Positions 5,237 through 30,422 of a DNA stretch of 64,000 nt are shown piece after piece. How positions within the stretch are numbered: position 1 is the stretch's first letter; every line of letters starts with the position of its first letter. The notes under the pieces were generated by a model. The model saw nothing but the letters and a program-made list of their open reading frames with translations. It searched no databases and had not been told where the DNA came from. Source of the DNA: an uncultured Candidatus Saccharibacteria bacterium (GTDB lineage: Bacteria > Patescibacteriota > Doudnabacteria > UBA920); the NCBI GenBank assembly GCA_964561085.1, contig CAZLNP010000001.1, positions 75,335 through 139,334 of the forward strand. The letters run 5' to 3'. The translations under genes and the position numbers were made by a program.

Positions 5237-5860
5237 TTATACAATGATTTTTCCCATATCTTTTGCAGCATCCCAAAGTGCTGCTTTCATCTTATTCTTT
5301 ATTATTGCCATCACTTGTTTTGGGCTAGTGTTGTCCATAATCATGGAAGTTGTTGCTCTAACAATATATTCTGATTCACTTTCTCCATGCACCGGTGAGG
5401 AGTAATTTATATCTTTAGCCAAATGGCTGTCTTCCAATAGCCACTCGCCCGGATAAGTTTCTCCCAATTTTGAAACTGTAGAGATGGTCCCACTCTCAGC
5501 ACCTAAGAATTTTTTAAGCTCTGCTACGAATTGAACTAATTCTTCGCTACGTCCACTTATAGACCAATCATTTTCTTGCATAGTATTTACGGCTTTTTTG
5601 AAATCATTGTCCAGGCTCGCAGCCATCGATTCCAACTTTTCTATCTCCTTTATGAGTTCTGGGTTGCGAAGCGCCTCATAAACATTTTCAGATCTTTCGA
5701 ATTCTCTATGAATCTGTTCCTTCTGAGCAACATCTGGCACTACCTTGATAGAACCGTCATGAGAAATATCTACCTCAGCTCCCTCGTCAACTAACTTTCG
5801 ATCAGAATTAAAGCGCTCAGCATTCATCATTTTAGCTTCCTGATCACTTAAATTTTCCAT
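5237..5860 (-). CDS. hypothetical protein (207 aa), last gene of csoR-trxB-gdhA-trxB operon
   Basis: ORF from track; 37-nt gap to upstream gene, same strand. Confidence 0.5.
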   Translation of the reverse strand: MENLSDQEAKMMNAERFNSDRKLVDEGAEVDISHDGSIKVVPDVAQKEQIHREFERSENVYEALRNPELIKEIEKLESMAASLDNDFKKAVNTMQENDWSISGRSEELVQFVAELKKFLGAESGTISTVSKLGETYPGEWLLEDSHLAKDINYSSPVHGESESEYIVRATTSMIMDNTSPKQVMAIIKNKMKAALWDAAKDMGKIIV

Positions 5861-5897
5861 ATGTTTTGATTAATTTATCTAATACGATTATAGCAAA

Positions 5898-9565: not shown

Positions 9566-9856
9566 CTAATTCTTTTTAGAGTAAATTTTGATGAGTTCTT
9601 CGACCGCAGCTTTACGCTTAGCAGGGTTAGTGCTTTTTGCATCTATGACACATTCGCCTAGGTATCCTTCTAGGATCAAATTGTTCACCTTCTTCATGGC
9701 TTCAATTACGGCGTGGCTTTGATTGATGATATCCATGCAGTAGGCGTCGGTTTCTACCATTGTGGCAACTGCCCGAACATGACCTTCTATGTAACGGAGT
9801 CGTTTTACTAAGTCAGCCTGGTTAGCGGCCGCAACACTGTTAAGTTTTTTTGACAT
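9566..9856 (-). CDS. CsoR/RcnR/FrmR-family (DUF156) metal- or thiol-sensing transcriptional repressor; start re-set to MSKKL (track ORF extends further upstream across the operator)
   Basis: LVKRLRYIEGHVRAV...YCMD...LGEC matches the CsoR-family helix bundle; fingerprint positions appear to be Cys-Tyr-Cys. Confidence 0.75.
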   Translation of the reverse strand: MSKKLNSVAAANQADLVKRLRYIEGHVRAVATMVETDAYCMDIINQSHAVIEAMKKVNNLILEGYLGECVIDAKSTNPAKRKAAVEELIKIYSKKN

Positions 9857-9874
9857 AATTTCTATATTTACTAG

Positions 9875-9891
9875 ACCCCCCTGTGGGGGGT
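9875..9891 (-). promoter_or_regulatory. candidate CsoR-family operator: ACCCCCC-TGT-GGGGGGT inverted repeat overlapping its own promoter
   Basis: Perfect 7-bp GC arms with 3-bp spacer, 19-35 nt upstream of the MSKKL start codon. On the coding strand it sits just downstream of TTGACT-17nt-TATACT (approx 9900-9928). Resembles known CsoR operators, which are G/C-tract palindromes. Confidence 0.5.
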
Positions 9892-9995
9892 ATATATCTA
9901 GTATATGCTCCCCCACTTTTTAAGTCAAACTTGAGAGGTGTTCATATGCATGGTATGATGTGCATGACAATCGCATTCTAAAGCCACTCTGGCTC

Positions 9996-10030
9996 AAATA
10001 AAGCCGCCCGAAAGGGCGGCTTTATTATTG
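9996..10030. terminator. bidirectional intrinsic terminator ending the 1760-aa surface protein gene
   Basis: AAGCCGCCC-GAAA-GGGCGGCTT hairpin flanked by A-run and T-run. Confidence 0.65.
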
Positions 10031-10065: not shown

Positions 10066-13000
10066 TTAGAACCCCAGCACTCCAGCAGCACGGGTCACAA
10101 GAACTTGGGTCTGTTGAAGAAGTTTGTCTGCAGTATTAGCTGCTACTGCTGTAATTGGGTTGTATCCCCAAGAAGATAGGACTTCCATGGAAGGAATACC
10201 AGCTAGAGCGTTGTCTTTAATGACTTGAAGAGTACCACTGTTGTTAATTAGAGTTCCTGATCTGTGGGTAGAGTTAGGATCAGAGATATTGTCTGTTGAA
10301 GTCATGAAAGAGACATCTCCATACAAGGCATTAGCAAAGGAGAAGCCTTGAGCTTTGAACACCTTCTCAGAAACAAATCCTGCTTTCATTCCACCAGTGA
10401 TTAGGTAACAAGTGCCTTTGTCTGTACCACGATCTGAGCAAGTGATTGAGCCATCTCTTGGAGGAATGAATGATCCTACCGGAAGAGTTAGATCAGAGCT
10501 GCGAGCGGGAACTGCATTGCTCCAAGTGTTAAAGCCATATGAAAGGTATGCACCTGCTGAAGTGTAAGGCCTGCGTTTACCATCTGAAGTAAGAGTGTAG
10601 ATGGTTCCAGTCGAGTCTACGATGTTAGTACCTACTGGATGGCGAGTGACAGAGCCGGAGGTTGAGCCAGATGCAGAAGCTGTGCCAAACAGTGCGAACA
10701 TTGAGAAACCGCCTGTTTCGCAAGTCACAGTATTTGCATTTGTATCTACTGTGCAAGGAGCTAGCGAAGACCAAGTTCCTGAGCTATATCGCCAAACCAC
10801 AAGAGATGATTCACTGATACCATCTATCTCATCATCTTCATAAGAGAAAGTTAAAGTAATAGGATCATTAAAAGAAGTTACGGATGTCCCAATTCCTGTT
10901 AAGGCTTTCAAGTCGTATGTGTGGCCATTTACAGGGTTTAACCCTGTAGGCATTCCAGAAGCGATTAATGCATCTGCAGTATTTATTTGCTTAATCTGGA
11001 ATACAGACTCTGCCCCAACAGCTCCAGCAGGGATATCTAATTCAATTCCAGAATCCCCATCTGTTAATTCAACCGTGCCTCCAGTAGCATTAGAAACATT
11101 ATCACCTATTTCACTTTCTACTTCTGCAGAACCAGTACAACCGTCAGTTGTAAATGTTGCACTAGAACTTGAAGTAGAAACAGATGAAGCGTCTACCGAT
11201 ACCACACTGTAGTGGTATGTAGTACAAGCAGCAAGGGAAGAGATTGTCTTTGAGTGTGAAAGTACTCGTGGAGAAGTATCCGTTACTGCGGAGGTCTCTG
11301 TGTGAGTAGAAGTAAGTCCGTATGTTACACCAGTAGAAGCAAGAGAGCCTGTTGTCCAAGTGATAACCGCACTAGTGGTCGCAGGATTAACACTAATAGC
11401 GGAAATTACTGGGCCAGTTGTATCGATTACCAAAGCCTTGTTGGCAGCTAAGTTAGTAGTCGGAACGAAGTTTACCATGGCATGAGCATCAAGATCAGCG
11501 ATGGTTCCAGAAATAGTTTTAACGGTTAAGTCATCGGTCGAATCACCAGCTTGAACTGTGTAATTACAACTTCCACTGGTCGCGCTAGTGACTGTAAAAG
11601 TACAGGTCCTGTCTGTCGCACCAGTTTCCAATGTCACTGTGACGTTGCCAGTTGAAGTAACAGCCTTCGAGAAGGTGACATCAATGTCTATTACTTCACC
11701 AACGCTGTATGTACCATTAGCTTTGTCAGAAGAAACATTAGTAATAGTTGGAGCGGAAGAATCTAGGGTTACAGGGTGATCAAAGTGAACTGCCCAGTTG
11801 TACAAAGTGTTGCTGTACAAAGATGGGTACGGGTCTGTATCACGCAAGTTCCCAGCTGCGCTGCCAGCATTTTGTGCACCAGTGTTTGTTCCAGGCACAC
11901 CTGTATAAGCGTATCTTAAGCGTTGGTTATTGCCTGTTGGAGTACCGCTTAGAGTAACTCTAACTGTATCGGTGTCAACTAACTCAACTGAGCTAATTGT
12001 TGCCGATGAAGTTGAGTCGTAATATTCAAATCCATAGTTTGTGCGGGCACTAACTAGAGTTGTATCAAAAGCTAGTTGCCCTGCAGGGACATGGAAGTCT
12101 GCCAAAATTACGTTCCCTGTACGAGTAACAGTGTCTGGGCTCAATGGGCGCCAAGTCTCATGATCTATAGCAACTTTCTTAATTACTTTCGCATGATACT
12201 CCCCTAACCAACGGGAACTTGCTGCAGTTAAGTGATGTCGATCTGAGTAGCTAAAGAAGTATTTTGGAGCAACTAGTACGATCTCATCTGGATTATCTTC
12301 CGCTGCATACAATTGATAGATTGGGATTTCCGAAGTAGCATCGTTAGCGTAAGAAGACATGAAAGAACTCATCTGGTCGATGAACATGTAAACCTCATTA
12401 CTCTGTCCAGTAATTGCTTTTACATCAGTATCGTAATCGTTCTGCCATTCTTCTAAGTAACCCTGATATGTTGCTCCACTTACATTATTGAAGTTATCAG
12501 TTTCACCATGAATATTAGTTACGCCCATTACACGAGACACTCGGCCAAGAGACAAAGCAGCGCTTTTTGCATTCGTAACTTGGTTCATCGCATTAGTATA
12601 TGGCCCTGTCCCCTTTTTCAGCTGGGAATATGTATAACCACTAACTCCATGGAGCGACATAACTGTATCTAAATCATTGCCGGTATCGTTGAAAGTCAAA
12701 GAGTTTGCAATCGCACTACTCATGGTTTCAACACTGCTTTCTATCAAAGCTGTGAAGCTACCGCCAGCACCCATTCCACCAGAACCACCGGTTAACATTT
12801 TGTTAGAGTAAGGTTGTGTAGTCGAAAGGGCTGGGCTTGCAGCAACACCAACAGACAAACTTTGACCTGTAGACAGAATTTGGTTTAAATAATTGATTGT
12901 AGCAACTTGGCTAGTTGCAGAACTAAGAGTTGCGGATCCAGTTGTCGGTGCAGTTGCACTACCTGGCGTTACTTCAAACTTCAGGTACATGCCAATATCG

Positions 13001-15348
13001 TCTTCATCTACTATATACGTAGTACTAGTAGCGCCAGAAATAGCAGAATAGCTGCCACCAGCGCTTGTAGCAGTTAGCCATCTGAAAGTAGAACCTGATT
13101 CCGAGTTGCCGTTCACGTCTACAAAGGTGTACGTTCCTGTAAGTTGCTCCCCAACTGCTGCATTCCCTGAAATAGCTACACCTGTCGCAGTTGGCGCGGT
13201 TGGAGTTGCAGAAACTGGACGAGCTGTAGCTGTAGATGATGGATCACTTGTACCATTGCTATTAATTCCAGATACGCGGAAGTTATAATTCAAACCGTTA
13301 GTTAATCCTGTAACCGTAGCTCCTGTGGAAGTAGAAGTGCCATCAGAAAAAGTTAACCAGGTCCCAGAAGTACTGAGCTTGTATTCAACTAAGTAATCAG
13401 TAATTGCAGCGCCGTTGTCTGCTCCAGCAGTCCAAGTCAACGCTACCTGTCCGTCACCAGGTGTTGCACCTAAACCAGATGGAGCAGCTGGGCCAGTTGC
13501 GGGTTCTATAATTTGTACATTATCTAAGTCGCTAGTACCAGTACTACTCATTGCACCCAGCCAGAACCCTTCGTCAGTAAATGTGCCAGATGTAATAGTT
13601 GCGCTTGGTGTTCCAGAACCATTTACAAACACGCTCGCACCTCCACCTTGGAGCGCCGTTAAGGTTAAGGTGAATGGAACTCCATTTGTACAAGATGTGA
13701 ATCCGCTCAAAGTTTGAGGTGATGCAGATGGACCGGATCCAGCAACGTTTGACCCACCAGTCCAGTAATACAATTCCCAGTTCGTTGCATTAGCTAAAAG
13801 AATATAAGATGATGTTCCTACTCCAGTGAAAACTAAATCACCATAGCCAATTGCTACTGGGCCCACACCCGAACCACAAGATGACCTAGTAACAGTAACT
13901 GTAATACTTACATCGCCGTTAGTTCTATCATATGTTTGTACTGTACTCAGTCCAGCGCCACCCCATGCACCAGTACCGGTTATATTTAGATCTCCATTTT
14001 GTTGAACGTTTCCAACAGTCCCTCCCGTACCACCTGGATCAAGCTCAGTCCATTTGTCAGTATCAATAGTGGTGCCAGTAAAATCATCTGACATAGCAAA
14101 GGTATTTGGAATACCGTTAGCTGTACTGGAAACAGGGCCAGTTCCTACAGAGTTAGTAGCAGAAACGCGGAAGTTATATGTAGAACCGTTTACTAAGCCA
14201 GTAACTGTTGCCCCAGTTGAGCCTGATGTGCCGTCGGAAAAAGTAGTCCAAGTAGTGGGCTCAGTGGAAAGTTTATACTCTACTATATAGTCAGTAATAG
14301 CCGCGCCGCCGTTGGTAAGAGGTGCGGACCAAGTCAAAGTTGATTGTCCGCTCGTTCCGCTAGATGCAGACAAGCCTTGCGGTGCAGATGGGACACTTAA
14401 CGCGGGAGTTGCGGTCGCTGTACTGGAAGGTACGCCGGTGCCCACCGAGTTAGTCGCAGAGACGCGGAAATTATAGCTCAACCCATTTGTTAAACCGGTT
14501 ACTGTAGTAGCCGCTGTAGTTGATGTACCGTCTGAAAAAGTAGTCCAAGTAGTTGGTTCGCTAGCCAATTTATATTCGACTAAGTAATCAGTAATAGCCG
14601 CCCCACCATTGCTAACAGGAGCTGTCCATGTTAATCCCATTGCAGTGCTGGCAGGTGTTGTTGTAAGTCCAGTTGGAGCGTCAGGGGCCGTCGCAGCACT
14701 TGCGCTAGCAATCACAACGTTATCAATTAACGTAGCTGTGCCGGAATGCCCCGAAAGGAAAAAACCTTTGTTGGTAAAAGTACCGCCGGTCAATGTCGCT
14801 GCCGCGGTGCCACTCCCGTTAATGTATAGAGCAGCGCCACTAGTGGAATCAATAGCGATGCGGGCACTAAAAGCCACGCCGTTGGTACAGCTAAAAGCTG
14901 TGGTAATATTTTCAGCATTACCATTAGCAAGCTGTCGGGAGAAATAAACTGTATTTGATACAACGTACAGAGTATAAGACTGTCCGCCGCCGGTCAACAC
15001 CCCAGGATCTCCATATCCAATACCAAAAATACTACTACCACTAGCGCAAGTCACATCAGCTGTCATCTCTAATCCCCCAACAGACCTATCATATGTATCG
15101 TCAGTAACCAAATAGTTGTTACCCCAAGAAGCAGAACCTGTCATGCTCAAAGACCCATTCTGTTGAATGTTCCCAGAAGTTCCCCCTACGCCACCAGCAT
15201 CTGTCTCATTCCATTTTACTGTATTAATAGTGGTTCCAGTAAAATCATCTGATAAAAGAGTCGATGCCTGGGAAAGATTAAACGTACTAGTAATGATTCC
15301 TGTCACTGCAAGAACTGCTATGAGCGTATATATGGACTTTTTGAACAT
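10066..15348 (-). CDS. Giant secreted surface protein (1760 aa): signal peptide, tandem LamG/ConA-like + fibronectin type III modules, SASA/SGNH-like esterase-like domain, Ig-like and FN3 domains
   Basis: N-terminal MFKKSIYTLIAVLAVTG signal/anchor. Repeated DDFTGTTI(N/D)T.KW modules, each followed by FN3-like PSAP..LTWTAP..GGAAITDY.VEYK...Y.FRVSA.N units. Central region has GQSLSVG, reminiscent of the sialate-O-acetylesterase GQSN motif. Near-identical ~200-bp DNA tandem repeats (approx 14150-14350 vs 14445-14640). Confidence 0.8.
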   Translation of the reverse strand: MFKKSIYTLIAVLAVTGIITSTFNLSQASTLLSDDFTGTTINTVKWNETDAGGVGGTSGNIQQNGSLSMTGSASWGNNYLVTDDTYDRSVGGLEMTADVTCASGSSIFGIGYGDPGVLTGGGQSYTLYVVSNTVYFSRQLANGNAENITTAFSCTNGVAFSARIAIDSTSGAALYINGSGTAAATLTGGTFTNKGFFLSGHSGTATLIDNVVIASASAATAPDAPTGLTTTPASTAMGLTWTAPVSNGGAAITDYLVEYKLASEPTTWTTFSDGTSTTAATTVTGLTNGLSYNFRVSATNSVGTGVPSSTATATPALSVPSAPQGLSASSGTSGQSTLTWSAPLTNGGAAITDYIVEYKLSTEPTTWTTFSDGTSGSTGATVTGLVNGSTYNFRVSATNSVGTGPVSSTANGIPNTFAMSDDFTGTTIDTDKWTELDPGGTGGTVGNVQQNGDLNITGTGAWGGAGLSTVQTYDRTNGDVSITVTVTRSSCGSGVGPVAIGYGDLVFTGVGTSSYILLANATNWELYYWTGGSNVAGSGPSASPQTLSGFTSCTNGVPFTLTLTALQGGGASVFVNGSGTPSATITSGTFTDEGFWLGAMSSTGTSDLDNVQIIEPATGPAAPSGLGATPGDGQVALTWTAGADNGAAITDYLVEYKLSTSGTWLTFSDGTSTSTGATVTGLTNGLNYNFRVSGINSNGTSDPSSTATARPVSATPTAPTATGVAISGNAAVGEQLTGTYTFVDVNGNSESGSTFRWLTATSAGGSYSAISGATSTTYIVDEDDIGMYLKFEVTPGSATAPTTGSATLSSATSQVATINYLNQILSTGQSLSVGVAASPALSTTQPYSNKMLTGGSGGMGAGGSFTALIESSVETMSSAIANSLTFNDTGNDLDTVMSLHGVSGYTYSQLKKGTGPYTNAMNQVTNAKSAALSLGRVSRVMGVTNIHGETDNFNNVSGATYQGYLEEWQNDYDTDVKAITGQSNEVYMFIDQMSSFMSSYANDATSEIPIYQLYAAEDNPDEIVLVAPKYFFSYSDRHHLTAASSRWLGEYHAKVIKKVAIDHETWRPLSPDTVTRTGNVILADFHVPAGQLAFDTTLVSARTNYGFEYYDSTSSATISSVELVDTDTVRVTLSGTPTGNNQRLRYAYTGVPGTNTGAQNAGSAAGNLRDTDPYPSLYSNTLYNWAVHFDHPVTLDSSAPTITNVSSDKANGTYSVGEVIDIDVTFSKAVTSTGNVTVTLETGATDRTCTFTVTSATSGSCNYTVQAGDSTDDLTVKTISGTIADLDAHAMVNFVPTTNLAANKALVIDTTGPVISAISVNPATTSAVITWTTGSLASTGVTYGLTSTHTETSAVTDTSPRVLSHSKTISSLAACTTYHYSVVSVDASSVSTSSSSATFTTDGCTGSAEVESEIGDNVSNATGGTVELTDGDSGIELDIPAGAVGAESVFQIKQINTADALIASGMPTGLNPVNGHTYDLKALTGIGTSVTSFNDPITLTFSYEDDEIDGISESSLVVWRYSSGTWSSLAPCTVDTNANTVTCETGGFSMFALFGTASASGSTSGSVTRHPVGTNIVDSTGTIYTLTSDGKRRPYTSAGAYLSYGFNTWSNAVPARSSDLTLPVGSFIPPRDGSITCSDRGTDKGTCYLITGGMKAGFVSEKVFKAQGFSFANALYGDVSFMTSTDNISDPNSTHRSGTLINNSGTLQVIKDNALAGIPSMEVLSSWGYNPITAVAANTADKLLQQTQVLVTRAAGVLGF

Positions 15349-15410
15349 AAGGGTTTATTTTAATTCTGCTTTAAGTATGACATATTATTCTCTTATCATT
15401 GATTCAGCCC

Positions 15411-15439
15411 TTGACATTTATCCACAATTGGAGTATACT
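15411..15439 (+). promoter_or_regulatory. consensus sigma70 promoter (TTGACA-17-TATACT) reading rightwards into GC-rich segment
   Basis: TTGACA at 15411-15416, exactly 17-nt spacer, TATACT at 15434-15439. Confidence 0.55.
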
Positions 15440-15446
15440 CTAGCGT

Positions 15447-15838
15447 CGGATGCGTTTCTGGTGCCACCATAGACTGGTGACCCTGGGAATGATCCGCAGT
15501 ATTAACGGAGGATGTCTGCCTACAGAGCGCGGTGCGCTGTTGTGGAAAGACGAGAAAGGACTCTATGTCCCAGACTCTGAGAAAAGCTACTCGCTCTCTA
15601 GTGAAAGCGACCAAAGTAGCCCATGTGCATCAGATGCTAGGAGTGCTCATTGTAGTAGCTCATGCATCAGAAATCACTAGAGTGATTTCGCACATCAGCT
15701 TGTGGCACTTAGCCATAGCAATGGTTCTCTTCGGACTATGGCTAGCCAGCGAAAAGCACTCATCAAAAGAGCTGGCATAGAGGCCAGCACACCCTAAAAA
15801 CTGGACTGCATACTTATTGCGGCTCAGTTTTTTCTTTT
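15447..15838 (+). ncRNA. candidate ~390-nt structured RNA or mRNA of a 71-aa membrane peptide (identity unresolved)
   Basis: Noticeably GC-richer than surroundings, many local hairpins (e.g. GCCATAG...CTATGGC). Bounded by consensus promoter and intrinsic terminator (AAAAACTGGACTGC...GCGGCTCAGTTTTT at 15796-15838). No RNase P or tmRNA signature could be recognised by eye. Confidence 0.3.
15565..15780 (+). CDS. alternative reading of the same unit: 71-aa basic N-terminus/two hydrophobic helix peptide (possible small membrane toxin-like protein)
   Basis: GAAAGGA Shine-Dalgarno 5 nt before ATG at 15565; MSQTLRKATRSLVKATKVAHVHQMLGVLIVVAHASEITRVISHISLWHLAIAMVLFGLWLASEKHSSKELA. Confidence 0.25.
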   Translation: MSQTLRKATRSLVKATKVAHVHQMLGVLIVVAHASEITRVISHISLWHLAIAMVLFGLWLASEKHSSKELA

Positions 15839-15917
15839 ATTGGCTATCTGGGGGGTTAATGAGGGGCTTGATTTTTTCCTCAATTTCTGTTACAATTCGA
15901 TAGTTATTTAAGTTCAT

Positions 15918-15992
15918 GGCGCTATCGTCTAACGGTTAGGACAGACGGTTTTCATCCGTCAAATCGGAGTTCGATTCTCCGTAGCGCTACCA
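15918..15992 (+). tRNA. tRNA-Glu (anticodon TTC), CCA encoded
   Basis: 7-bp acceptor GGCGCTA/TAGCGCT (G1-U72), D-arm GTCT AACGGTTAGG AC, anticodon stem GACGG/CCGTC with loop TTTTCAT, T-arm CGGAG TTCGATT CTCCG, discriminator A then CCA. Confidence 0.85.
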
Positions 15993-17452
15993 CCTAACAT
16001 TTTATCCCTTTTGGAGATAGGCAAACATTCTTTTTTCCAATTGGTTATTACATTTTTATCACTTAGAGAAAAGTTTTCCACTAAACTTTTCACAAGACGG
16101 CGTCGGGATTCTTCCGACGCTGTTTTGTATGCAATGGTTGGGCTTTTAAGCAGTTTTCCAAGGTTTTCCATTTTCAGCATCGATTCAGCATTTTCAGACT
16201 GTACGCCATTTAATTGTTCAGTATATTCAATTTTTTTGTTTAACAATTTTGACTTCATGGATTGATAATCTTCGCTACTGATACTTTTGTCCAAAAATCG
16301 ATCCATTATATCGTCAAGCTGTTTCTCTACTTTATGAATTTCAAATATCCATTTAGCAGTAAGCTCCCCCTGTTGGCTTTTCAAGTCTTCCCTTAACTGT
16401 CCGATTGCTTTCAAAAACATTACTACTTCTTCATCCGAAAATTCAATACCCTTTAGTTCTTCAAAAAACTGTTCATCTACAAGTTCTTCTAACAAATTAT
16501 ATTTATGTTCTGCGCTGCGGCAGTTGTAGTACTTATAATAAACATTTCTATGTACTTTAGTTGAAGAAATACATCTTAATGGTCTATCGCAGGTAGGACA
16601 ATTAAGCATTCCTTGAAATACATACAACCGTTTTCTTTTATGCTTAAAGCTCTTCTTGTCTAACACTTCCTGAACTTTATCAAATAAAGATTTAGTAATG
16701 ATCGGTTGATGAATACCTTTGAAATCTCCTTTATTAGTCCACCGTACGATTCCGTAGTAAAATGGGTTTCTAAACATTTTATAAAGTGTTTTGTGTTTTA
16801 CCAAACCACCGTCATTATTCCTTAACCCCATTTCTTTTAACTTATCCTGTAAAGGTATAATCCCATACAAACCAGTAGCAAACATTTCGAATGCTTGTTT
16901 TACAAGTCTACTTTGAACAGGGTCAGGTTCTTTGAAACCTTTTTTAGAATCTAAATAACCGATTGGAGCTCTTGATGGAAAAAGTCCTTGTTCTAACATT
17001 CTATCAAATGCTGTATTTACTTTAACCCGCAATCTTTGGCTATAGACTGTTGCCTGCCCCCATAAATCATAAATTCTTGAAAGGTCATCGTCTGATTGAG
17101 TTGTGAGATTTTCAGCAGCAAAGTGAAAGTGATAGCCTTGTTCAATAAGTTTGTAAAAATTTCCAATATCTTGGTAATTCCTTGACGATCTGTCCACGGT
17201 AGCAAAGCAAATTCCAGCTAACTTTTCTTTCTTTAATCTTTGTATTAACATGCCAAACAACTTTCTCCCAGGACGAAAGGAAGATTCTACCCCCTCAAAG
17301 AAGTCAACTATTTCTAACCCTCTCTGTTTTGCATATAGTTCTATTTGTTTCTTTTGAATTTCTGGACTCCAGTTTGTTGCTTGGTCTTTTGAACTGACCC
17401 GTACATAAGCTAAGAATTTATTATTAGATAATTTTTTCATGTTGTCCTTCAT
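15959..17452 (-). CDS. Large serine recombinase (resolvase catalytic domain + recombinase domain + zinc ribbon + coiled coil)
   Basis: AYVRVSSKDQ catalytic serine motif near N-terminus, CPTCDRPLRC...C zinc ribbon, 497 aa; C-terminal codons overlap the tRNA-Glu 3' half. Confidence 0.9.
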   Translation of the reverse strand: MKDNMKKLSNNKFLAYVRVSSKDQATNWSPEIQKKQIELYAKQRGLEIVDFFEGVESSFRPGRKLFGMLIQRLKKEKLAGICFATVDRSSRNYQDIGNFYKLIEQGYHFHFAAENLTTQSDDDLSRIYDLWGQATVYSQRLRVKVNTAFDRMLEQGLFPSRAPIGYLDSKKGFKEPDPVQSRLVKQAFEMFATGLYGIIPLQDKLKEMGLRNNDGGLVKHKTLYKMFRNPFYYGIVRWTNKGDFKGIHQPIITKSLFDKVQEVLDKKSFKHKRKRLYVFQGMLNCPTCDRPLRCISSTKVHRNVYYKYYNCRSAEHKYNLLEELVDEQFFEELKGIEFSDEEVVMFLKAIGQLREDLKSQQGELTAKWIFEIHKVEKQLDDIMDRFLDKSISSEDYQSMKSKLLNKKIEYTEQLNGVQSENAESMLKMENLGKLLKSPTIAYKTASEESRRRLVKSLVENFSLSDKNVITNWKKECLPISKRDKMLGGSATENRTPI

Positions 17453-18176
17453 ATATGTTTCCTTTATATGATATTTTATTTTTATAAATATCGTTAGTTA
17501 ATATTTTTTTAATTGTTGACGGCCACCACCTGTTACCTCCACGCTTTGTTGGTATGCTTCGCAAATTTAGGTATGCAGCAATTTTAGTAAGATTCATTCT
17601 CTTATAGCGTTTTAAGTGAAAGATTTTTCTTACAATATCTGCCTCTGCTTGATTTGTTATCAACTGTCCGTCTTTGCAGTCGTATCCGTAAATTTCTCCT
17701 CCATGCCACCTCCCCTTAGCTGCAGCCGAAGCGCGTCCGTTGGTCAGTCGCATTGTAATCATGGCTCTTTCGAATTCACTAAAAGCACCTATAATTTGCC
17801 TAAACAGTTTACGAGTTGCATCATTACTACCTAAGTCTGGTTCAGTTAGTGAGATTAGCTGTTTATTTAGTTTTATAAACTCTCTTATTAGTCCTTCCTG
17901 GATATAGAGGTCACGGGCTAATCTCGTCAGTGACAAAATTACAACTGCTTTTACTTCGCTATTAACTTCTAAATACTGCATCATTTGTGCCAGCGCTGGC
18001 CTATGTTCCAAACCGCCACTTACACCATCGTCTTTAAACCATTCAACTATTTCTATACCGTTCTTTTTTGCATAATTTGATATTGATTCAACTTGTAATT
18101 CAATGTTGTCATTTTCCGCTTGTAGTGCAGTTGATACTCTGCAATATGCTATCGCTTGCATTTTCGTTCCTTCCAT
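17424..18176 (-). CDS. Serine recombinase, short form (resolvase domain + partial recombinase domain, no zinc ribbon)
   Basis: AIAYCRVSTALQ catalytic motif; 250 aa; 3' end overlaps the start of the 497-aa recombinase by 29 nt. Confidence 0.8.
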   Translation of the reverse strand: MEGTKMQAIAYCRVSTALQAENDNIELQVESISNYAKKNGIEIVEWFKDDGVSGGLEHRPALAQMMQYLEVNSEVKAVVILSLTRLARDLYIQEGLIREFIKLNKQLISLTEPDLGSNDATRKLFRQIIGAFSEFERAMITMRLTNGRASAAAKGRWHGGEIYGYDCKDGQLITNQAEADIVRKIFHLKRYKRMNLTKIAAYLNLRSIPTKRGGNRWWPSTIKKILTNDIYKNKISYKGNIYEGQHEKII

Positions 18177-18472
18177 ATCTGATTACTAACTTTTGCGAAT
18201 TCTGACCGAGCGAACTTTATCCCCTTTAACAACGAAAACGCTTTCGCGTAATCTGCGTCTAGTATTGCCCTAATTCTGTCCTGTTCCATCTGCCTTAATT
18301 TTTGTGAAGTACCTTTTAGCCACTCGAGCCGTTCTTCACAATTAGAGAATTTCATGTTACTCCAAATATAAAACCACCAGAGAATGAACTGCCAATTGTT
18401 ACGACACAACAACAGTTTCCCTGGTGGTTTAATTAAACTATACCAAATAAAAATTTGGCGTTCAATATCCAT
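18149..18472 (-). CDS. hypothetical small protein (likely starts at internal MKFSNCEER...)
   Basis: ORF from track upstream of the recombinase pair; N-terminal part of the track ORF is tryptophan-rich and implausible. Confidence 0.3.
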   Translation of the reverse strand: MDIERQIFIWYSLIKPPGKLLLCRNNWQFILWWFYIWSNMKFSNCEERLEWLKGTSQKLRQMEQDRIRAILDADYAKAFSLLKGIKFARSEFAKVSNQIWKERKCKR

Positions 18473-18609
18473 TGTTGTGTCGTATATAAATAGTAATCAC
18501 TATAGATGGCAAAGTACAATCTAGTCCGCAACTAGCCACAAAAGTATTCCCCTGTATACTCTTTATTAAATCCTCCTAAAATGGTGTCTATGGTGTATAT
18601 GCTGTCAGG

Positions 18610-20190
18610 CTAAAATGGTATGTCAGATTCATTTAGTGTATCCAAGGCCGCTTCGTCTGAATCTTCCATGACACCAGAAACAGCATTGACACCACTCTCG
18701 TAAATCTTCGTAAATGTAATCAGTCGTGCGCCGTCCTTATCGCGAGAAACTTTGATTCCGAGCGCCATCAGGTTTGTTGCGACAACTTGCAGTCTACGCC
18801 ATAGCCAATTCGGTGTTTTTGGAAATTCTCTCTGTCTTGTGTCTTGTTTTAGCTTTATTGCCAGTTCTTGAAGCACTAATAGCAAGTCAGTTGGAGTAGC
18901 TTGATAGTGCGTTTTGTTTTCCATGAATGCAATAACAACTTGCGCCACAGGAGAGTCATCAATCGCTTCAGCATTTTGTCTGATTAGGTTTTGAGTTAAC
19001 GCATCTATAAATTCTTCTGCCGTGTGTCCAATCGCAATACTGATAGCACAGCCCCACCGCACAAAATCTGCCATACGGAAGTTGCTTATTTGTTCTGGCA
19101 GTTCCATTCCCGGGTATACTTTAATGGATTTTTGTACTGCTCCAATTATTGCGCCTAAGAGCTGCGGTCGTGCTTGTTCAAACTCTGCCATTAACACACC
19201 TTCTTCTTTATAGTTTTGAGGTCTTTCTAGTTCAATAATTAGTGAACGTTCCAACAAATCAGGTTTACTAACCACAAGATTAATTCCGTTCATGGCAACG
19301 ACACGGCGGAAGCTGTAAATAATATCATCGTCATCTGAATAGAGTTCTCGCTTTGACATACCTTCGCCAGTCACGGTTCTGCATAATAGGTCTGAAAATT
19401 CAGGTTTTATAGGTGATAGATTATCAAGCGGTAAGAAATAATGATGGCTGGCTAACTGCACATACTCTCTGCTGTCGCCATGTGCGGTTAAAGTTTCCAT
19501 TATTGATGGGTCAATTAGCCCACGGAGCAGTTTGAACAAAGTAGTTTTTCTTGACCCTTGCGGTCCGTGAACAACTAATATCGGGTGCGGGAAGTTAGGC
19601 AACACAGACGCTACGAGCCATACAAGCAGTAATAATTTTTGACGTGGTTCTTTCGGAGTAGGAATGAAGTCAAATACTTTTTCTAACTCTGCTCCTGGTA
19701 TAGGTGCAACCTGCAGGCGCTGATGTCCGAATCTGTAAAACAGAATTGGTGCAGGGTCTAGTATTTTCCACTCATCTTTATTTATCAGTACCGCACGACC
19801 ATCACCTAAATCGTAAATTATACCGTTATCAGTTTCAGCAATTCTTACATGTAGCTTTATTTCTTCGCTGTCATGCGTTGCGTGTCCTTCTAGCGTTCTA
19901 ACTGCTGTTTCTATAGTGCCAGACGACACGGCCTTGCCTAATTCATCCCAACCGAGATGCGACAACCATGACTTGAATCCACGCGACCTCAGCTTTAGAG
20001 TCTTATGTCCATTCTCCTCTACAGCTATAAAGCCGTTATCAAACTGGTCATGAAATAGTTTAACGTTTCTGTTCAGTACCAGTTCAACAAGCTGTTCGGT
20101 AAGATTCTTTTCACTATCTGATTCAACTATAGATTCAGCTACAGAATCTTGGGTTTCTTTTTCTATAATTTCGTTTTCTTTGTCTGTCAT
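18610..20190 (-). CDS. Phage/plasmid primase-associated helicase (D5/P4-type P-loop NTPase)
   Basis: Walker A VHGPQGSRKTT about 190 aa from N-terminus, acidic C-terminus; gene order immediately after a primase zinc-finger protein. Confidence 0.6.
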   Translation of the reverse strand: MTDKENEIIEKETQDSVAESIVESDSEKNLTEQLVELVLNRNVKLFHDQFDNGFIAVEENGHKTLKLRSRGFKSWLSHLGWDELGKAVSSGTIETAVRTLEGHATHDSEEIKLHVRIAETDNGIIYDLGDGRAVLINKDEWKILDPAPILFYRFGHQRLQVAPIPGAELEKVFDFIPTPKEPRQKLLLLVWLVASVLPNFPHPILVVHGPQGSRKTTLFKLLRGLIDPSIMETLTAHGDSREYVQLASHHYFLPLDNLSPIKPEFSDLLCRTVTGEGMSKRELYSDDDDIIYSFRRVVAMNGINLVVSKPDLLERSLIIELERPQNYKEEGVLMAEFEQARPQLLGAIIGAVQKSIKVYPGMELPEQISNFRMADFVRWGCAISIAIGHTAEEFIDALTQNLIRQNAEAIDDSPVAQVVIAFMENKTHYQATPTDLLLVLQELAIKLKQDTRQREFPKTPNWLWRRLQVVATNLMALGIKVSRDKDGARLITFTKIYESGVNAVSGVMEDSDEAALDTLNESDIPF

Positions 20191-20193
20191 ATT

Positions 20194-20817
20194 TTATAGT
20201 CCTAGTAAGTACTTGACGGCTTCGGGGAAAGAATAGCCGTGAAGTAACATTATGAATTTAATTGAGTTGCCCCCTTCTTGGCAGCCGAAACACCAACAAG
20301 AATTTGTTTGTGAGTAAACTGTGAATGACGGGCGTTTGTCTTCGTGGAATGGGCATAGCCCTGTGAGATTGTTTCCACTACGCCTTAGTCTGCCGTCGTA
20401 CAAATCAGCTATTGGAATTTGAGTGGCCATTTCTATTTGCTCATCTGTCAATCGTCCTTTAGGCTTCTTGCCACTGGCGACATAAACTTGCCGTCTCAGT
20501 CTTGCTATATGCTTAATTACTTCAAGTAGTTGTAGCCCGTCAGTGTGCTTAACCAATTCTCTGCAAAACCAGTATTCAAAGTCAGTTTTTGTACTGTCAT
20601 ATAATCGTTCCAGTTTCCGCAATATTGATTTCTTGACGGCTTTCTTTACGATTTGCCATTCCTTAATCTTGCTTGGCAGTACAGACTTGATTTCAGGGAA
20701 TATCGATAACAACTCAGCATCTGTATATTTGCGCTTTGAATCCCTATGTTCAGATTCCAGTTCTTCATACATGAGCCACTGCTCATAATCTTTATCGACA
20801 TGACTAGCTTGTGTCAT
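20194..20817 (-). CDS. DnaG-type primase zinc-finger (CHC2) domain protein
   Basis: C-terminal CPFHEDKRPSFTVY...CWCFGCQEGGNSIKF matches the zf-CHC2 consensus; 3-nt gap to the helicase gene. Confidence 0.6.
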   Translation of the reverse strand: MTQASHVDKDYEQWLMYEELESEHRDSKRKYTDAELLSIFPEIKSVLPSKIKEWQIVKKAVKKSILRKLERLYDSTKTDFEYWFCRELVKHTDGLQLLEVIKHIARLRRQVYVASGKKPKGRLTDEQIEMATQIPIADLYDGRLRRSGNNLTGLCPFHEDKRPSFTVYSQTNSCWCFGCQEGGNSIKFIMLLHGYSFPEAVKYLLGL

Positions 20818-21501: not shown

Positions 21502-21793
21502 ATATATATTGTAGTATTAGTTAACTTCTCTAGACGTGATTTCTTACATTCGGTTAGTACCGAGTGTCCAAGACCCTAAAGCAAGTGACTATAATATAAC
21601 AAAATAACCCCTCTCAGAATAGGCATATAAATACCTATAACCAATACAAAAAGTGTTCTCTGAGGCCATTCTAGGACTTCATGGAATGCTTCAAAGTGCC
21701 TTGTTTATAGTACTTTTAGCTGTAATGGTATATAATTAACCTACAATTCTGCCTAAACCTTCAAGTAATTGAAGGCATGGCGCAATACTAAAC

Positions 21794-21922
21794 CCACTAC
21801 TACATGAAGGCGGCTATCCGTCTTGCTTACCATGTAGTAGTGGTTATCCTTCCGAAAGGTTGGATAAGGCAAGCGGGTAGCCCCTTTTGTTTTTTAAAAT
21901 AATTAAATCCACTACTACAATG
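21794..21922 (+). repeat. iteron-like element: three copies of CCACTACTACA(A)TG (two forming a 13-bp inverted repeat) plus TTATCC/GGATAA hairpin and T-tract
   Basis: Copies at 21794-21806, 21831-21843 (inverted) and 21909-21922 (overlapping the start codon of the downstream ORF). Confidence 0.5.
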
Positions 21923-22477
21923 AAAAAATGCCCATACTGCGCTGAAGAAATGCAGGACGAAGCAGTCGTTTGCAAGCACTGCAAAAAAGATATTCCCAAA
22001 CAAGACAAGCACTTACCAACGAATGTACCCAACTTTAATCCCACATTAAATAATAGAGTTTTAATTGCTATAGTAATTATTATTGCATTGTTATGCCTTT
22101 ACGCCATAATGCGAATGAAGCAAGGCAATACTTCCGTGCCGGCAACCCCGGCAGCAACTACAAATTCAATAAGCAACCAGTCGCTAGAACACAAACTGGC
22201 TTCTATACATTCTAACGACACAGCTCCACCGCAAGAACTGGTTAATCAGTTTAAAGACCAGTTATATAAACTAAGTTTAGTATGTCCGAAAAATACCGAA
22301 CAACAACTAAGCGATTATATCGTGAAAGCACATCAACTAATCACTGAAAAGCGTCCTGTATTTACACTTCTTGAAGTTAGTCAGGGATTTTATACTAGTA
22401 TTCCAAAAACAAATACCACTACAGACTGCGTTGATTACATGACAATATACATGGCTTTAGTCCTAAAAGGTTACTAA
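21920..22477 (+). CDS. hypothetical zinc-ribbon + single-TM membrane protein
   Basis: [23 protein letters not shown] then hydrophobic [17 protein letters not shown]; start re-set from the track TTG to ATG 21920. Confidence 0.45.
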
Positions 22478-29184: not shown

Positions 29185-29284
29185 AGCTTAATTATAGCAT
29201 GTTGTTGAAGATAAATCAACAGTTATTTAATGGCTTATTTACGATATTATTTAGATTAATTTCTACATTCTTTTGAAGTAGTAT

Positions 29285-29313
29285 TGACAAAAGAGCAAAA
29301 ATCTGTTATACTG
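29285..29313 (+). promoter_or_regulatory. consensus sigma70 promoter TTGACA-17-TATACT for the PLP-fold gene
   Basis: TTGACAaaagagcaaaaatctgtTATACT followed by GAGGAGG Shine-Dalgarno and ATG at 29364. Confidence 0.6.
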
Positions 29314-29363
29314 GTAAGTCAAAAATAAAAACTATTAAAAAACAAGTCTTGAGGAGGACAATA

Positions 29364-30422
29364 ATGAATACACTATCGAACAAAAGAAAGGCTCTCTATG
29401 CTTCAATCTTGGGTTCTGTAAAGAACTCCCCTGTCGAGTCTATCGAGTTTGAGGGTAACCATTACCACTTCAAGCTTGATTACAAACTTCCCTACGGGGA
29501 ATGCCATTATGCCAGAGTGTTTTCTCAGCTAATATATCTCAAGGAATGCTTAGGCATTATCAAACCTGGAGATACATTACTAGAAACAACTTCCGGTTCT
29601 GGCGGACGAGGTGCAGCTGCTGTAGCAACTGCTCTTGGATACCGGATTATAATCGGCCTTCCCGCCGGTGGAGAAAAAGCTCGTGAAGATGCCATCAAGA
29701 AAGCGGGTGGAGAACTACTTCTTACGCCGTCTGAAGCTTACGTAAATGGTTTCCCGGAATTCATCAAAAAGTATCTTGTTGAAAACCGTGGAACCAGATA
29801 TATCAATCATGTTATGGGCGATATATCTGGCAGAGGGATTTCCATTAATCATGCGGCGATTAATGCCTTCCGCCCATTTGTGTACGAAGTATTGGAAGCT
29901 GGTATTAAACCAGACGTTGTGATCAGTCCTCTTGGCAACGGGACTACAACGCTTCCAATGGTTGAGGGGTTCAAATCTCTCTTTGCGAAAACAGAAGTTG
30001 TAGGTTTTGAGTCTGTTGCTGCCGGTTATGCACACAGAAAATACTATGCTGGCAAGTACGAAGACATCTTCGGAATAAACCCAGATGTGTTTACTCGGCA
30101 TGACCTGCCGGGCTCATCACCTTCTCACACAACTTTTCCAATGCCCGCTCTAGATGCAGCAATACCGCAACTAGATGGTGTCGGATTGGTGACAAGTGAT
30201 TACACAGATCGACTGTTCAGTGAAACCGTTGGCTTCAAGCCTTCGGATAAAAGTAACTGGGTCGTGAAGTGGGATGACTTTCATCATTCTGCGCTAACGG
30301 AATTTGGCCGGACTGGCAGAGCCGGTTTCGCACTCGCCGTCACATTGGCACGTAAAAAAGAAGTGTCTGGCAAACATTTTCTTGTACCAATATTTGACGC
30401 ATCCTGGCATTACGATAGCTGA
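29364..30422 (+). CDS. PLP-fold type II (CysK/tryptophan-synthase-beta-like) protein, apparently lacking the Schiff-base lysine
   Basis: IIKPGDTLLETTSGSGGRGAA matches the cysteine-synthase [21 protein letters not shown] Gly-loop. The position of the SIKDR lysine reads GECHYAR. Start re-set from the track TTG to ATG 29364. Confidence 0.65.
   Translation: MNTLSNKRKALYASILGSVKNSPVESIEFEGNHYHFKLDYKLPYGECHYARVFSQLIYLKECLGIIKPGDTLLETTSGSGGRGAAAVATALGYRIIIGLPAGGEKAREDAIKKAGGELLLTPSEAYVNGFPEFIKKYLVENRGTRYINHVMGDISGRGISINHAAINAFRPFVYEVLEAGIKPDVVISPLGNGTTTLPMVEGFKSLFAKTEVVGFESVAAGYAHRKYYAGKYEDIFGINPDVFTRHDLPGSSPSHTTFPMPALDAAIPQLDGVGLVTSDYTDRLFSETVGFKPSDKSNWVVKWDDFHHSALTEFGRTGRAGFALAVTLARKKEVSGKHFLVPIFDASWHYDS

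Follow-up and report, generated by a model that had tools for sequence, protein, structure and literature searches.

A probable small inner-membrane protein gene with an unusually structured mRNA beside tRNA-Glu in an uncultured Saccharibacteria genome

Small inner-membrane accessory or ion-site subunits such as KdpF, CydX, AcrZ and MgtS have fewer than 100 aa and one to three helices, are encoded on the chromosome in a single copy, and keep intramembrane polar or small residues conserved on one face of a helix. Small proteins are also encoded on strongly structured transcripts. The type I toxin mRNAs of tisB, hok and zorO combine a small hydrophobic product with a long structured leader that holds a single-stranded purine tract, all in a compact mRNA, and RNAIII/hld, SgrS/SgrT and SR1/SR1P are ~400-nt monocistronic transcripts with their own promoter and terminator, a small open reading frame (ORF) and extra RNA structure. 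Furthermore, 5′ stem-loops and the stabilising Shine–Dalgarno element (STAB-SD) are documented as mRNA stabilisers in the passages of PMC7509114 that cite Emory et al (1992) and Agaisse & Lereclus (1996). Features of each of these systems were found together in a segment (positions 15411–15838) of a 64,000-nt stretch of DNA from an uncultured Candidatus Saccharibacteria bacterium (contig CAZLNP010000001.1, positions 75,335–139,334), which is called the window hereafter. The segment resembles RNase P RNA and transfer-messenger RNA (tmRNA) as well, in its length of ~390 nt, its strong promoter and terminator and its place beside a tRNA gene, and a preliminary description of the DNA had put forward a structured non-coding RNA (ncRNA) of that size as its leading idea. 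We found that the segment is very probably a gene that encodes a small inner-membrane protein on a monocistronic transcript of ~390 nt, with a near-consensus sigma-70 promoter, and not an ncRNA.

The coding status of the ORF was examined in a codon alignment of 13 loci comprising the window and 12 other distinct metagenomic loci recovered as DNA. At the protein level, 17 homologues with 57–99% identity, all of them unnamed, were found in a collection of 5.8 billion proteins. The mean pairwise differences among the 13 loci were 0.327, 0.188 and 0.538 at codon positions 1, 2 and 3, respectively; the median proportions of nonsynonymous (pN) and synonymous (pS) differences were 0.25 and 0.68, and the median ratio of nonsynonymous to synonymous substitution rates (dN/dS) was 0.16. 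Synonymous changes at the first codon position, such as AGA to CGA, were present. Frame 1 contained no stop in any of the 13 loci, and frames 2 and 3 contained 3–11 and 0–5 stops. The indels in the N-terminal part preserved the frame, and a hairpin of the leader (P2, see below) had lengths that were not multiples of three. The sequence GAAAGG(A/G)C, followed 4–7 nt on by ATG, was kept in all the 13 loci. Because the frame is kept open, the substitutions are of the coding type, the indels preserve the frame and the Shine–Dalgarno (SD) sequence and ATG are conserved, a purely non-coding reading is excluded. Judged from this pattern of substitution, the ORF at 15565–15780 is a genuine protein-coding gene, and the ATG at 15565 is taken as its start codon.

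The sigma-70-type promoter of the small gene (Table 1) matches the consensus at 11 of 12 positions. There are eight sites with at least 11 matches on the two strands of the window against 2.8 expected from shuffles, so the promoter match on its own is only a modest signal. At the homologous position, TTGAC(A/T)-17-TA(T/G)A(C/A)T was found in 12 of the 13 distinct loci. Similarly, a terminator made of an A-tract, a stem and a U-tract was present in 13 of 13, with stem sequences that differed. Both the TTGACA-17-TATACT promoter and the clean intrinsic terminator pointed out in the preliminary description are thus present and have their equivalents in the relatives. Transcription would start at about 15443–15447, and the transcript would be ~390 nt long and monocistronic, ending at the terminator ahead of the separately promoted tRNA-Glu. 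The G+C content of the transcript was 48.9% against 40.7% window-wide, and 1.4% of 393-nt windows were as rich. The enrichment that had been claimed earlier is real, and the wording that the segment is richer than anything around it was slightly overstated, because 200-nt windows of the neighbouring adhesin gene reach a G+C content of 57%. The minimum free energy (MFE) of the transcript was −140.4 kcal/mol with a z of −4.07 against dinucleotide shuffles, in keeping with the multiple stable hairpins described before, and the reverse strand of the region folded alike (z = −4.22).

Screening against the known RNAs gave no family for the segment. The scan of the whole window with Rfam at gathering thresholds returned tRNA-Glu and the LOOT RNA only, and cmscan of 15300–15950 at E ≤ 10 returned three chance-level matches (E 0.56–9.3) to two eukaryotic small nucleolar RNA families and tpke11, all far under the gathering score, so that even at this permissive threshold no family was obtained. 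The RNase P RNA models (RNaseP_bact_a and RNaseP_bact_b) were matched in neither of these two scans, tmRNA was found neither by Rfam nor by ARAGORN, which reported only tRNA-Glu in the window, and none of the Rfam cis-regulatory families matched in 15300–15950 (E ≤ 10). The ~390-nt length, the strong promoter and terminator and the folding z of −4.07 could be explained by a tmRNA, a diverged form of RNase P RNA or a large RNA of a new kind, with the ORF incidental, and the end of the ORF (...ELA) is superficially like a tmRNA tag. Against this reading, which we hold to be very improbable, stand the missing Rfam and ARAGORN matches, the 3′ end of the unit in a terminator and not in a tRNA-like domain, the equally good folding of the reverse strand and the coding core that RNAalifold found to be free of covariation. 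It is the protein-coding substitution pattern, with its codon periodicity, a dN/dS of 0.16 and an ORF open in 13 of 13 loci despite a pS of ~0.68, that effectively refutes it. A false lead is thereby removed, in that the segment should not be taken for the RNase P RNA or the tmRNA of a candidate-phyla-radiation genome.

Other starts and frames in the segment were considered and rejected. The GTG start at 15532, which would give 82 aa, lies in a region that is non-coding by its indel lengths, and it is the SD and ATG at 15565 that are conserved. A mini-ORF from the AUG of GGAGGAUG (15512) has zero spacing to its SD, and its AUG is missing in four loci. The overlapping ORFs 15450–15680 (+) and 15396–15614 (−) are unconserved, and frames 2 and 3 hold stops in the homologues. 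The spread of the family was monitored in several collections. A scan of 185,579 species-representative genomes of GTDB with two peptide patterns gave one locus, in a Candidatus Saccharibacteria metagenome-assembled genome, and a metagenome scan for relatives gave three loci. When 1.84 billion cluster representatives were searched with a profile, only 29 proteins were returned at E ≤ 0.001, some of them with an additional N-terminal helix, and a second profile search of the 5.8 billion proteins added no named member. In these collections, the family is tiny, unnamed and restricted to Saccharibacteria-like metagenomic lineages. A defined small-protein family is thus gained that was formerly unannotated and that gene callers list as “hypothetical” only.

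The leader of ~120 nt was analysed by folding 12 leaders one by one between conserved anchor blocks; a consensus from MAFFT and RNAalifold was discarded because the 3′ arms of the two hairpins were out of register in it. It opened with hairpin P1, after which came a GGAGG that resembles an SD and was left unpaired, then hairpin P2 as an optional element, and lastly the strong SD AGAAAGGA, likewise unpaired, and the AUG. P1 began at the C of GUC in 12 of 12 loci, a few nucleotides past the predicted transcription start, and changed in a compensatory manner: pair 2 was G-C in seven loci, C-G in four and A-U in one, pair 4 was A-U or G-C, and pair 5 was U-A or C-G. Its 5′ arm GCGUUUC was conserved, and the 3′ arm varied so as to keep the pairing. 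Directly after P1, the folds left the highly conserved AUUAACGGAGGAU unpaired. The 16-nt block AUUAACGGAGGAUGUC that carries the GGAGG surpassed the protein N-terminus in conservation, occurred once in the window and had no complement elsewhere in it; the AUG after the GGAGG was missing in L006, L010, L015 and L016. P2 was present in 10 of 13 loci and missing in L006, L010 and L015; its basal pairs were also compensatory (GUCUG/CAGAC, GUCCG/CGGAC and GCCUGC/GCGGGC), and because its lengths are not multiples of three it is considered non-coding. The leader closed with the unpaired GAGAAAGGAC and the AUG. The SD AGAAAGGA (15553–15560) stands 4 nt ahead of the AUG, and both stayed unpaired when the window leader was folded, in the MFE as well as in the centroid structure, and lay outside P1 and P2 in 12 of 12 leaders. 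In these predicted folds, neither P1 nor P2 can mask the ribosome-binding site.

This arrangement was compared with the described mRNA stabilisers. As in the 5′ stem-loop of the ompA type, P1 is at most a few nucleotides away from where the 5′ end is predicted, and as in the Bacillus STAB-SD of the cryIIIA leader, an unpaired GGAGG is found far upstream of the true start with no conserved start codon after it. The sequence features of a 5′-terminal stem-loop and of a STAB-SD are present, conserved and covarying, with the 5′ end placed from the promoter. Unlike in the ompA and cryIIIA stabilisers, for which the effect itself is described and here would follow by likeness, an optional covarying hairpin parts the upstream SD from the true SD, and the coding region of the small gene is itself under folding selection. 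By analogy, the leader anatomy is of the known mRNA-stabiliser type and unlike that of riboswitches or silenced toxin mRNAs, and the leader would stabilise the mRNA.

The same leader could be thought of as regulated, with the GGA purine tracts ACGGAGGAU and AGAAAGGAC forming a two-site platform for a repressor of the CsrA type, or with the leader sensing a ligand, so that expression becomes conditional. The two GGA motifs are indeed conserved and unpaired, stand ~14–18 nt apart when P2 is left out of the count, with one of them overlapping the SD, AGGAUGU resembles what we take to be the CsrA consensus from systematic evolution of ligands by exponential enrichment (RUACARGGAUGU), and P1 combines a conserved GCGUUUC arm with a pairing-preserving 3′ arm. 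We regard this regulated leader as unlikely, since the tips of P1 and P2 are variable and conserved internal loops or junctions are missing, unlike in riboswitch aptamers, no Rfam cis-regulatory family matched, neither hairpin can mask the SD, and no csrA was seen in the 64-kb window, though csrA was not searched for.

The 71-aa product, of which VAHVHQMLGVLIVVAHASEITR is an example peptide, was predicted by AlphaFold2 from a 32-sequence alignment to form a helical hairpin with helices at residues 3–43 and 46–70 (predicted local distance difference test 78). Its N-terminus carries five Arg/Lys residues, and the hydropathy maxima were at residues 24–42 and 40–62. Within the close clade, the core HVHQMLG..VVAHASEI.RV.SHIS.WHL was invariant, and ELA was found at the C-terminus. 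Across 32 family members, Ser35, Glu36, His43 and Trp59 were near-invariant, and Ala32, His33, Ala34, Val40, His48, Ala52 and Phe56 were strongly conserved in the family. The conservation had a period of 100–105 degrees along each helix, and therefore each helix has one conserved face, made of Ala32-His33-Ala34-Ser35-Glu36, Val40 and His43 in helix 1 and of His48, Ala52, Phe56 and Trp59 in helix 2. The basic N-terminal helix, probably cytoplasmic, would run into transmembrane helix 1, and a tight turn at His43–Ser45 would lead into transmembrane helix 2. An N-in/C-in topology of the hairpin is expected from the positive-inside rule. Such a hairpin may oligomerise or dock on a larger membrane complex, so that the His/Ser/Glu cluster would come to lie in the outer half of the membrane and there bind or pass on a cation, either a proton or a divalent metal. 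This mechanism of an oligomeric or accessory hairpin with a cation-binding or cation-relaying cluster, drawn from residue conservation alone, is put forward tentatively as one possibility among several. KdpF, CydX, AcrZ and MgtS are offered as a functional class for comparison and not as a homologous family. The protein shares with that class its size, helix number, chromosomal single-copy gene and conserved helix face; unlike them, it has no sequence or fold relationship to the class and belongs to a family confined to Saccharibacteria-like metagenomic lineages.

Searches with the protein returned no known family. Pfam gave no family for the 71-aa protein and none that was shared among the 32 family members scanned; the best Pfam match of the 82-aa extension was MscS_TM with 17.3 bits against a cut-off of 28. 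All the NCBIfam matches had E ≥ 0.006 and were far under the cut-offs, PADLOC gave no match for the protein, and PHROG gave none for the window protein or its close family. The profile search of PDB returned only coiled-coil noise at E~1, and Foldseek found no match for the predicted fold in PDB and BFVD.

The preliminary description had offered as its alternative an SD-preceded 71-codon ORF with a basic N-terminus, two hydrophobic helices and a long structured 5′ untranslated region (UTR), likened to type I toxins or holins. The anatomy was confirmed in all these parts, and the likeness to toxins and holins was not. A locus of the type I toxin–antitoxin kind would make a membrane-damaging peptide from a structured mRNA whose standby-like SD is curbed by an antisense or trans-acting RNA. 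The peptide is small and hydrophobic with a basic N-terminus, its long, structured 5′ UTR holds an unpaired upstream purine tract that resembles the standby site of tisB, the mRNA is strongly folded, and the locus adjoins an integration hotspot. The SD and AUG are, however, unpaired in the predicted folds, as opposed to tisB, hok and zorO, and stand behind a near-consensus promoter, an arrangement contrary to the usual silencing. The window yielded no antitoxin RNA: no promoter-like site was seen on the minus strand in 15411–15838, a scan that a weak or non-canonical antisense promoter may escape, and the conserved leader block has no complement in the window. The gene is single-copy in the window and keeps a fixed syntenic chromosomal position in the relatives, the peptide of 71–90 aa with two or three helices is above the typical size of type I toxins, and its helices hold invariant polar residues (His, Glu and Ser) under a dN/dS of 0.16. 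The toxin reading is thus unlikely, and we rate it somewhat below the regulated leader.

The coding region was found to be more folded than the protein sequence demands. Against dinucleotide shuffles, z of the coding sequence was negative in all the 13 homologues (−1.2 to −6.3). Against synonymous-codon shuffles, in which codons were swapped among positions of the same amino acid so that the protein and the codon usage were kept (100 shuffles), z ranged from −0.8 to −6.3 with a median of −2.9, and in 12 of the 13 homologues at most two of the 100 shuffles folded as well as the native sequence. The controls, 216-nt segments (n = 34) taken from the other genes in the window, gave a mean z of −0.22 with a standard deviation of 0.77 and a minimum of −1.82. 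A hairpin inside the coding sequence (15630–15671) was conserved in position with a mean pair probability of 0.80–0.88 in the 13 homologues; its synonymous stem sites were nearly always pair-compatible and its loop sites variable. Within the stem, Ala34 was encoded by GCA or GCG in 12 of 12 and Ala32 by GCU or GCC in 11 of 13 and never by GCA. These results are suggestive of a maintained element, one without double compensatory changes. Apart from this hairpin, the folds of the coding sequence differed among the homologues. A perfect 8-bp hairpin GAAAUCAC/GUGAUUUC (15670–15689) was rejected as a candidate, since its covariation between the window and L004 was only apparent and it was lost outside the close clade. 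The over-folding suggests that selection in this clade has favoured a compact and probably long-lived mRNA, and it offers a testable mRNA-level constraint in an uncultured lineage, seen in the 13 homologues and not in the neighbouring genes. The intuition in the preliminary description that the segment is remarkable as an RNA therefore survives in part: its identity as an ncRNA fell, and the folding of the coding region beyond the need of the protein, measured with synonymous shuffles against controls, stands. The proposed folding with covariation likewise divided, with the leader hairpins P1 and P2 covarying and the coding sequence lacking covariation.

As to expression, the terminal hairpin P1, the upstream GGAGG of the STAB-SD type as a docking site for the 30S subunit, the folded coding sequence and the terminator hairpin would together give a long-lived and efficiently translated mRNA, and a long-lived mRNA would in turn allow steady and abundant synthesis of the protein. 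We lean, by a small measure, towards this mechanism. Several observations weigh against the reading of the segment as a stably expressed small membrane-protein gene. Transcription, the 5′ end (placed from the promoter) and translation are all read from the DNA sequence. RNAalifold on the core of the coding sequence gave a covariation term of +0.54, with no covariation and no double compensatory change; the relation of per-site synonymous entropy to pairing probability was not significant (Spearman −0.29, p = 0.12); and a distant homologue, L019, had no excess folding of its coding sequence (z = −0.24). On the side of the protein, the predicted template modelling score was low at 0.36, as expected for a 71-residue hairpin, helix 1 was moderately hydrophobic (Kyte–Doolittle about 1.2–1.5 over 19 residues), and the function has no homology support from Pfam, NCBIfam, PHROGs, PADLOC, PDB or Foldseek with PDB and BFVD. 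In addition, no box for the neighbouring CsoR-family repressor was found between −35 and +1 of the small gene in the window, and none was consistent in the relatives.

The results on folding bear equally on a dual-function RNA, in which the ~390-nt transcript would encode the 71-aa protein and also work as an RNA with a structural or regulatory role, as RNAIII/hld, SgrS/SgrT and SR1/SR1P do, the folded coding sequence and the single-stranded block of the leader being its working parts. Selection for folding at synonymous sites in 12 of the 13 homologues, far past the control genes, would be expected of it, as would the positionally conserved hairpin at 15630–15671 with pair-compatible stem sites and variable loop sites, the unpaired 16-nt block that outdoes the protein N-terminus in conservation, and a monocistronic unit with strong promoter and terminator. 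The missing double compensatory changes, the non-significant per-site test and the lack of the signal in L019 speak against it, as does the lack of a complementary target in the window. The homologues fold differently save for one hairpin, so that generic selection for stability fits better than a defined RNA machine; moreover, unlike in RNAIII/hld, SgrS/SgrT and SR1/SR1P, the ORF makes up 55% of the transcript and is its most conserved part at the protein level. A dual-function RNA is accordingly improbable, to much the same degree as the regulated leader. Equally doubtful is a bolder combination, a dual-purpose transcript with a maintained compact fold (leader hairpins, exposed 16-nt block and coding region shaped at synonymous sites) that has a role at the RNA level and with a product that forms a His/Glu-lined cation-binding or cation-conducting oligomer in Saccharibacteria. 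The small-gene reading preferred here is a modest addition that does not overturn the current understanding; it describes an ordinary kind of genetic unit with an unusually structured mRNA.

Table 1. Coordinates of the small gene, its RNA elements and other features of the window.
Feature	Position	Strand	Remarks
Sigma-70-type promoter of the small gene	15411–15439	+	−35 TTGACA 15411–15416; 17-nt spacer; −10 TATACT 15434–15439
Leader hairpin P1	15447–15496	+	CGGAU/AUCCG base pairs; variable tip
Conserved unpaired block AUUAACGGAGGAUGUC	15501–15516	+	SD-like GGAGG 15507–15511, not the start site; kept in all loci
Leader hairpin P2	15514–15551	+	GUCU.../...AGAC; optional insert between two purine tracts
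True ribosome-binding site GAGAAAGGA and AUG	15552–15560; 15565–15567	+	Unpaired in predicted folds
Coding sequence, 71-aa protein	15565–15780	+	Stop TAG 15778–15780; core HVHQMLGVLIVVAHASEITRVISHISLWHL; C-terminal ELA
Hairpin inside coding sequence	15630–15671	+	Codons 22–36; GAUGC 15633–15637 pairs with GCAUC 15664–15668, plus flanking pairs
Intrinsic terminator	15796–15838	+	A-tract; stem-loop 15796–15832 (inverted repeat I2); U-run to 15838
csoR-family repressor gene	9566–9930	−	Promoter TTGACT-17-TATACT; box ACCCCCCTGTGGGGGGT (9876–9892) right after
fn3-rich 1760-aa ORF (adhesin gene)	10066–15348	−	fn3 and Ig-like domains; SASA esterase-like segment
Promoter of tRNA-Glu	15868–15896	+	Own, conserved; TTGATT-17-TACAAT, extended TG
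tRNA-Glu(UUC)	15918–15992		Confirmed
Large serine recombinase ORF	15959–17452	−	3′ end inside the tRNA-Glu 3′ end
Second resolvase/recombinase	17424–18176		In element 15918–20817 at tRNA-Glu
P-loop protein	18610–20190		In element at tRNA-Glu
CHC2 primase zinc-finger protein	20194–20817		In element at tRNA-Glu
LOOT RNA (Rfam RF03000)	21750–21882	+	50.3 bits; gathering score 46.4
Second TTGACA-17-TATACT promoter	29284–29312	+	Identical hexamers; before ORF 29349–30422 with GAGGAGG SD
Giant 3653-aa ORF	52907–63868	−

The neighbours named earlier, a giant adhesin ORF and tRNA-Glu, were both found on the two sides of the small gene. In the relatives, the small gene is divergent from an operon in which the gene of a csoR-family repressor is joined by trxB, gdh and a further TrxR-like gene, with tRNA-Glu downstream; the csoR-trxB-gdh divergence was seen in L002, L003, L004, L012, L013 and L016–L018, and in L019, at 39% identity, the family gene again adjoins a TrxR-like gene and gdh. 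The trxB of the window is a thioredoxin-disulfide reductase by NCBIfam, above the cut-off. In the window, the adhesin gene sits between csoR and the small gene, and from the comparison with the relatives it is an insertion at that place; an fn3 protein similar to the 1760-aa ORF was also observed in L004, but after the tRNA. Genomes of Saccharibacteria are very small, and because the gene is kept under strong purifying selection in such genomes, with near-consensus signals and a fixed place by the trxB/gdh stress operon, the small membrane protein likely matters to the cell. As the CsoR box is not in the promoter of the small gene, its association with the neighbouring operon is regarded as synteny and at most as a loose functional link.

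The cargo after tRNA-Glu differed between the loci. In the window, it begins with two recombinase genes (Table 1), of which the neighbouring one gave no record in an exact look-up, and in L002 it contains HamA and a helicase (Hachiman-like), a recombinase and an HsdM methylase. Because of this difference, tRNA-Glu is considered an integration hotspot with the small gene on its chromosomal side. The placement at the edge of a mobile element that had been proposed is therefore right as to the position beside the tRNA and wrong as to membership of the element, since relatives with other cargo keep the gene. This synteny also bears on the suggestion that the product is a phage or mobile-element holin (pinholin-like, with two transmembrane domains) of the element integrated at tRNA-Glu, to which the 71 residues, the two hydrophobic helices and the two serine recombinase genes directly past the tRNA could point. 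The gene lies upstream of the tRNA and outside the element, and it is kept by relatives with entirely different cargo; no endolysin neighbour or lysis cassette was found, the neighbours being csoR-trxB-gdh or the adhesin gene, and tRNA-Glu; and neither a PHROG match for the close family nor a BFVD match by Foldseek was obtained. A holin is thus effectively excluded, and is the least probable of the readings considered.

The promoter of csoR and its box ACCCCCCTGTGGGGGGT were compared among the loci, and the box was also present at the csoR promoter in L002, L003 and L008. The start of csoR is probably the ATG at 9856, the listed GTG at 9916 reading through the operator. The csoR protein contains DAYC...YLGEC, with Tyr at what we take to be the position of the copper ligand His61 of M. 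tuberculosis CsoR. Because of this Tyr, the protein may be a CstR-like thiol or persulfide sensor of trxB-gdh-trxR2 and not a copper sensor. Where csoR is directly divergent from the small gene, the −35 region forms a palindrome TTGAC-N4-GTCAA (L002, at 5876–5889, L003, L006, L008, L012 and L019), and the palindrome therefore represents back-to-back −35 hexamers for two divergent promoters. The second half of the palindrome has decayed (TTGACATTTATCCA) in the window, in which csoR and the small gene are parted by the adhesin gene.

Additional elements were noticed in the intergenic regions. A conserved non-coding block at 9940–10030, in the gap between csoR and the adhesin gene of the window, has small hairpins and a terminator AAAGCCGCCCGAAAGGGCGGCTTT at its end, and a similar block was seen in L003 (about 5750–5830) in the gap between csoR and the small gene; the block of the window had no Rfam match, and it may represent a small RNA or a common terminator region that serves both directions. 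The same intergenic region of L003 contains, at about 5620–5700, a tRNA-like 3′ end (…GCGGGTGCAACTCCCGTCCGGTCCACCA) that was called by neither ARAGORN nor Rfam and may be a remnant attachment (att) site or a degenerate tRNA; the Rfam scan of the longer intergenic region of L003 gave tRNA only. A conserved block TTCGATAGTTA precedes tRNA-Glu, and because tRNA-Glu has its own conserved promoter it is not considered to be co-transcribed with the small gene. In the island that starts at tRNA-Glu, the LOOT RNA lies directly upstream of an ORF at 21887–22477; we take LOOT to be a motif of the candidate phyla radiation, which the paper checked did not confirm, and its presence may point in the same direction as the Candidatus Saccharibacteria locus found for the protein family. 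Finally, near-consensus promoters were about three times commoner in the window than in shuffles, and one of them, far downstream of the small gene, has the same two hexamers as the promoter of the small gene (Table 1).

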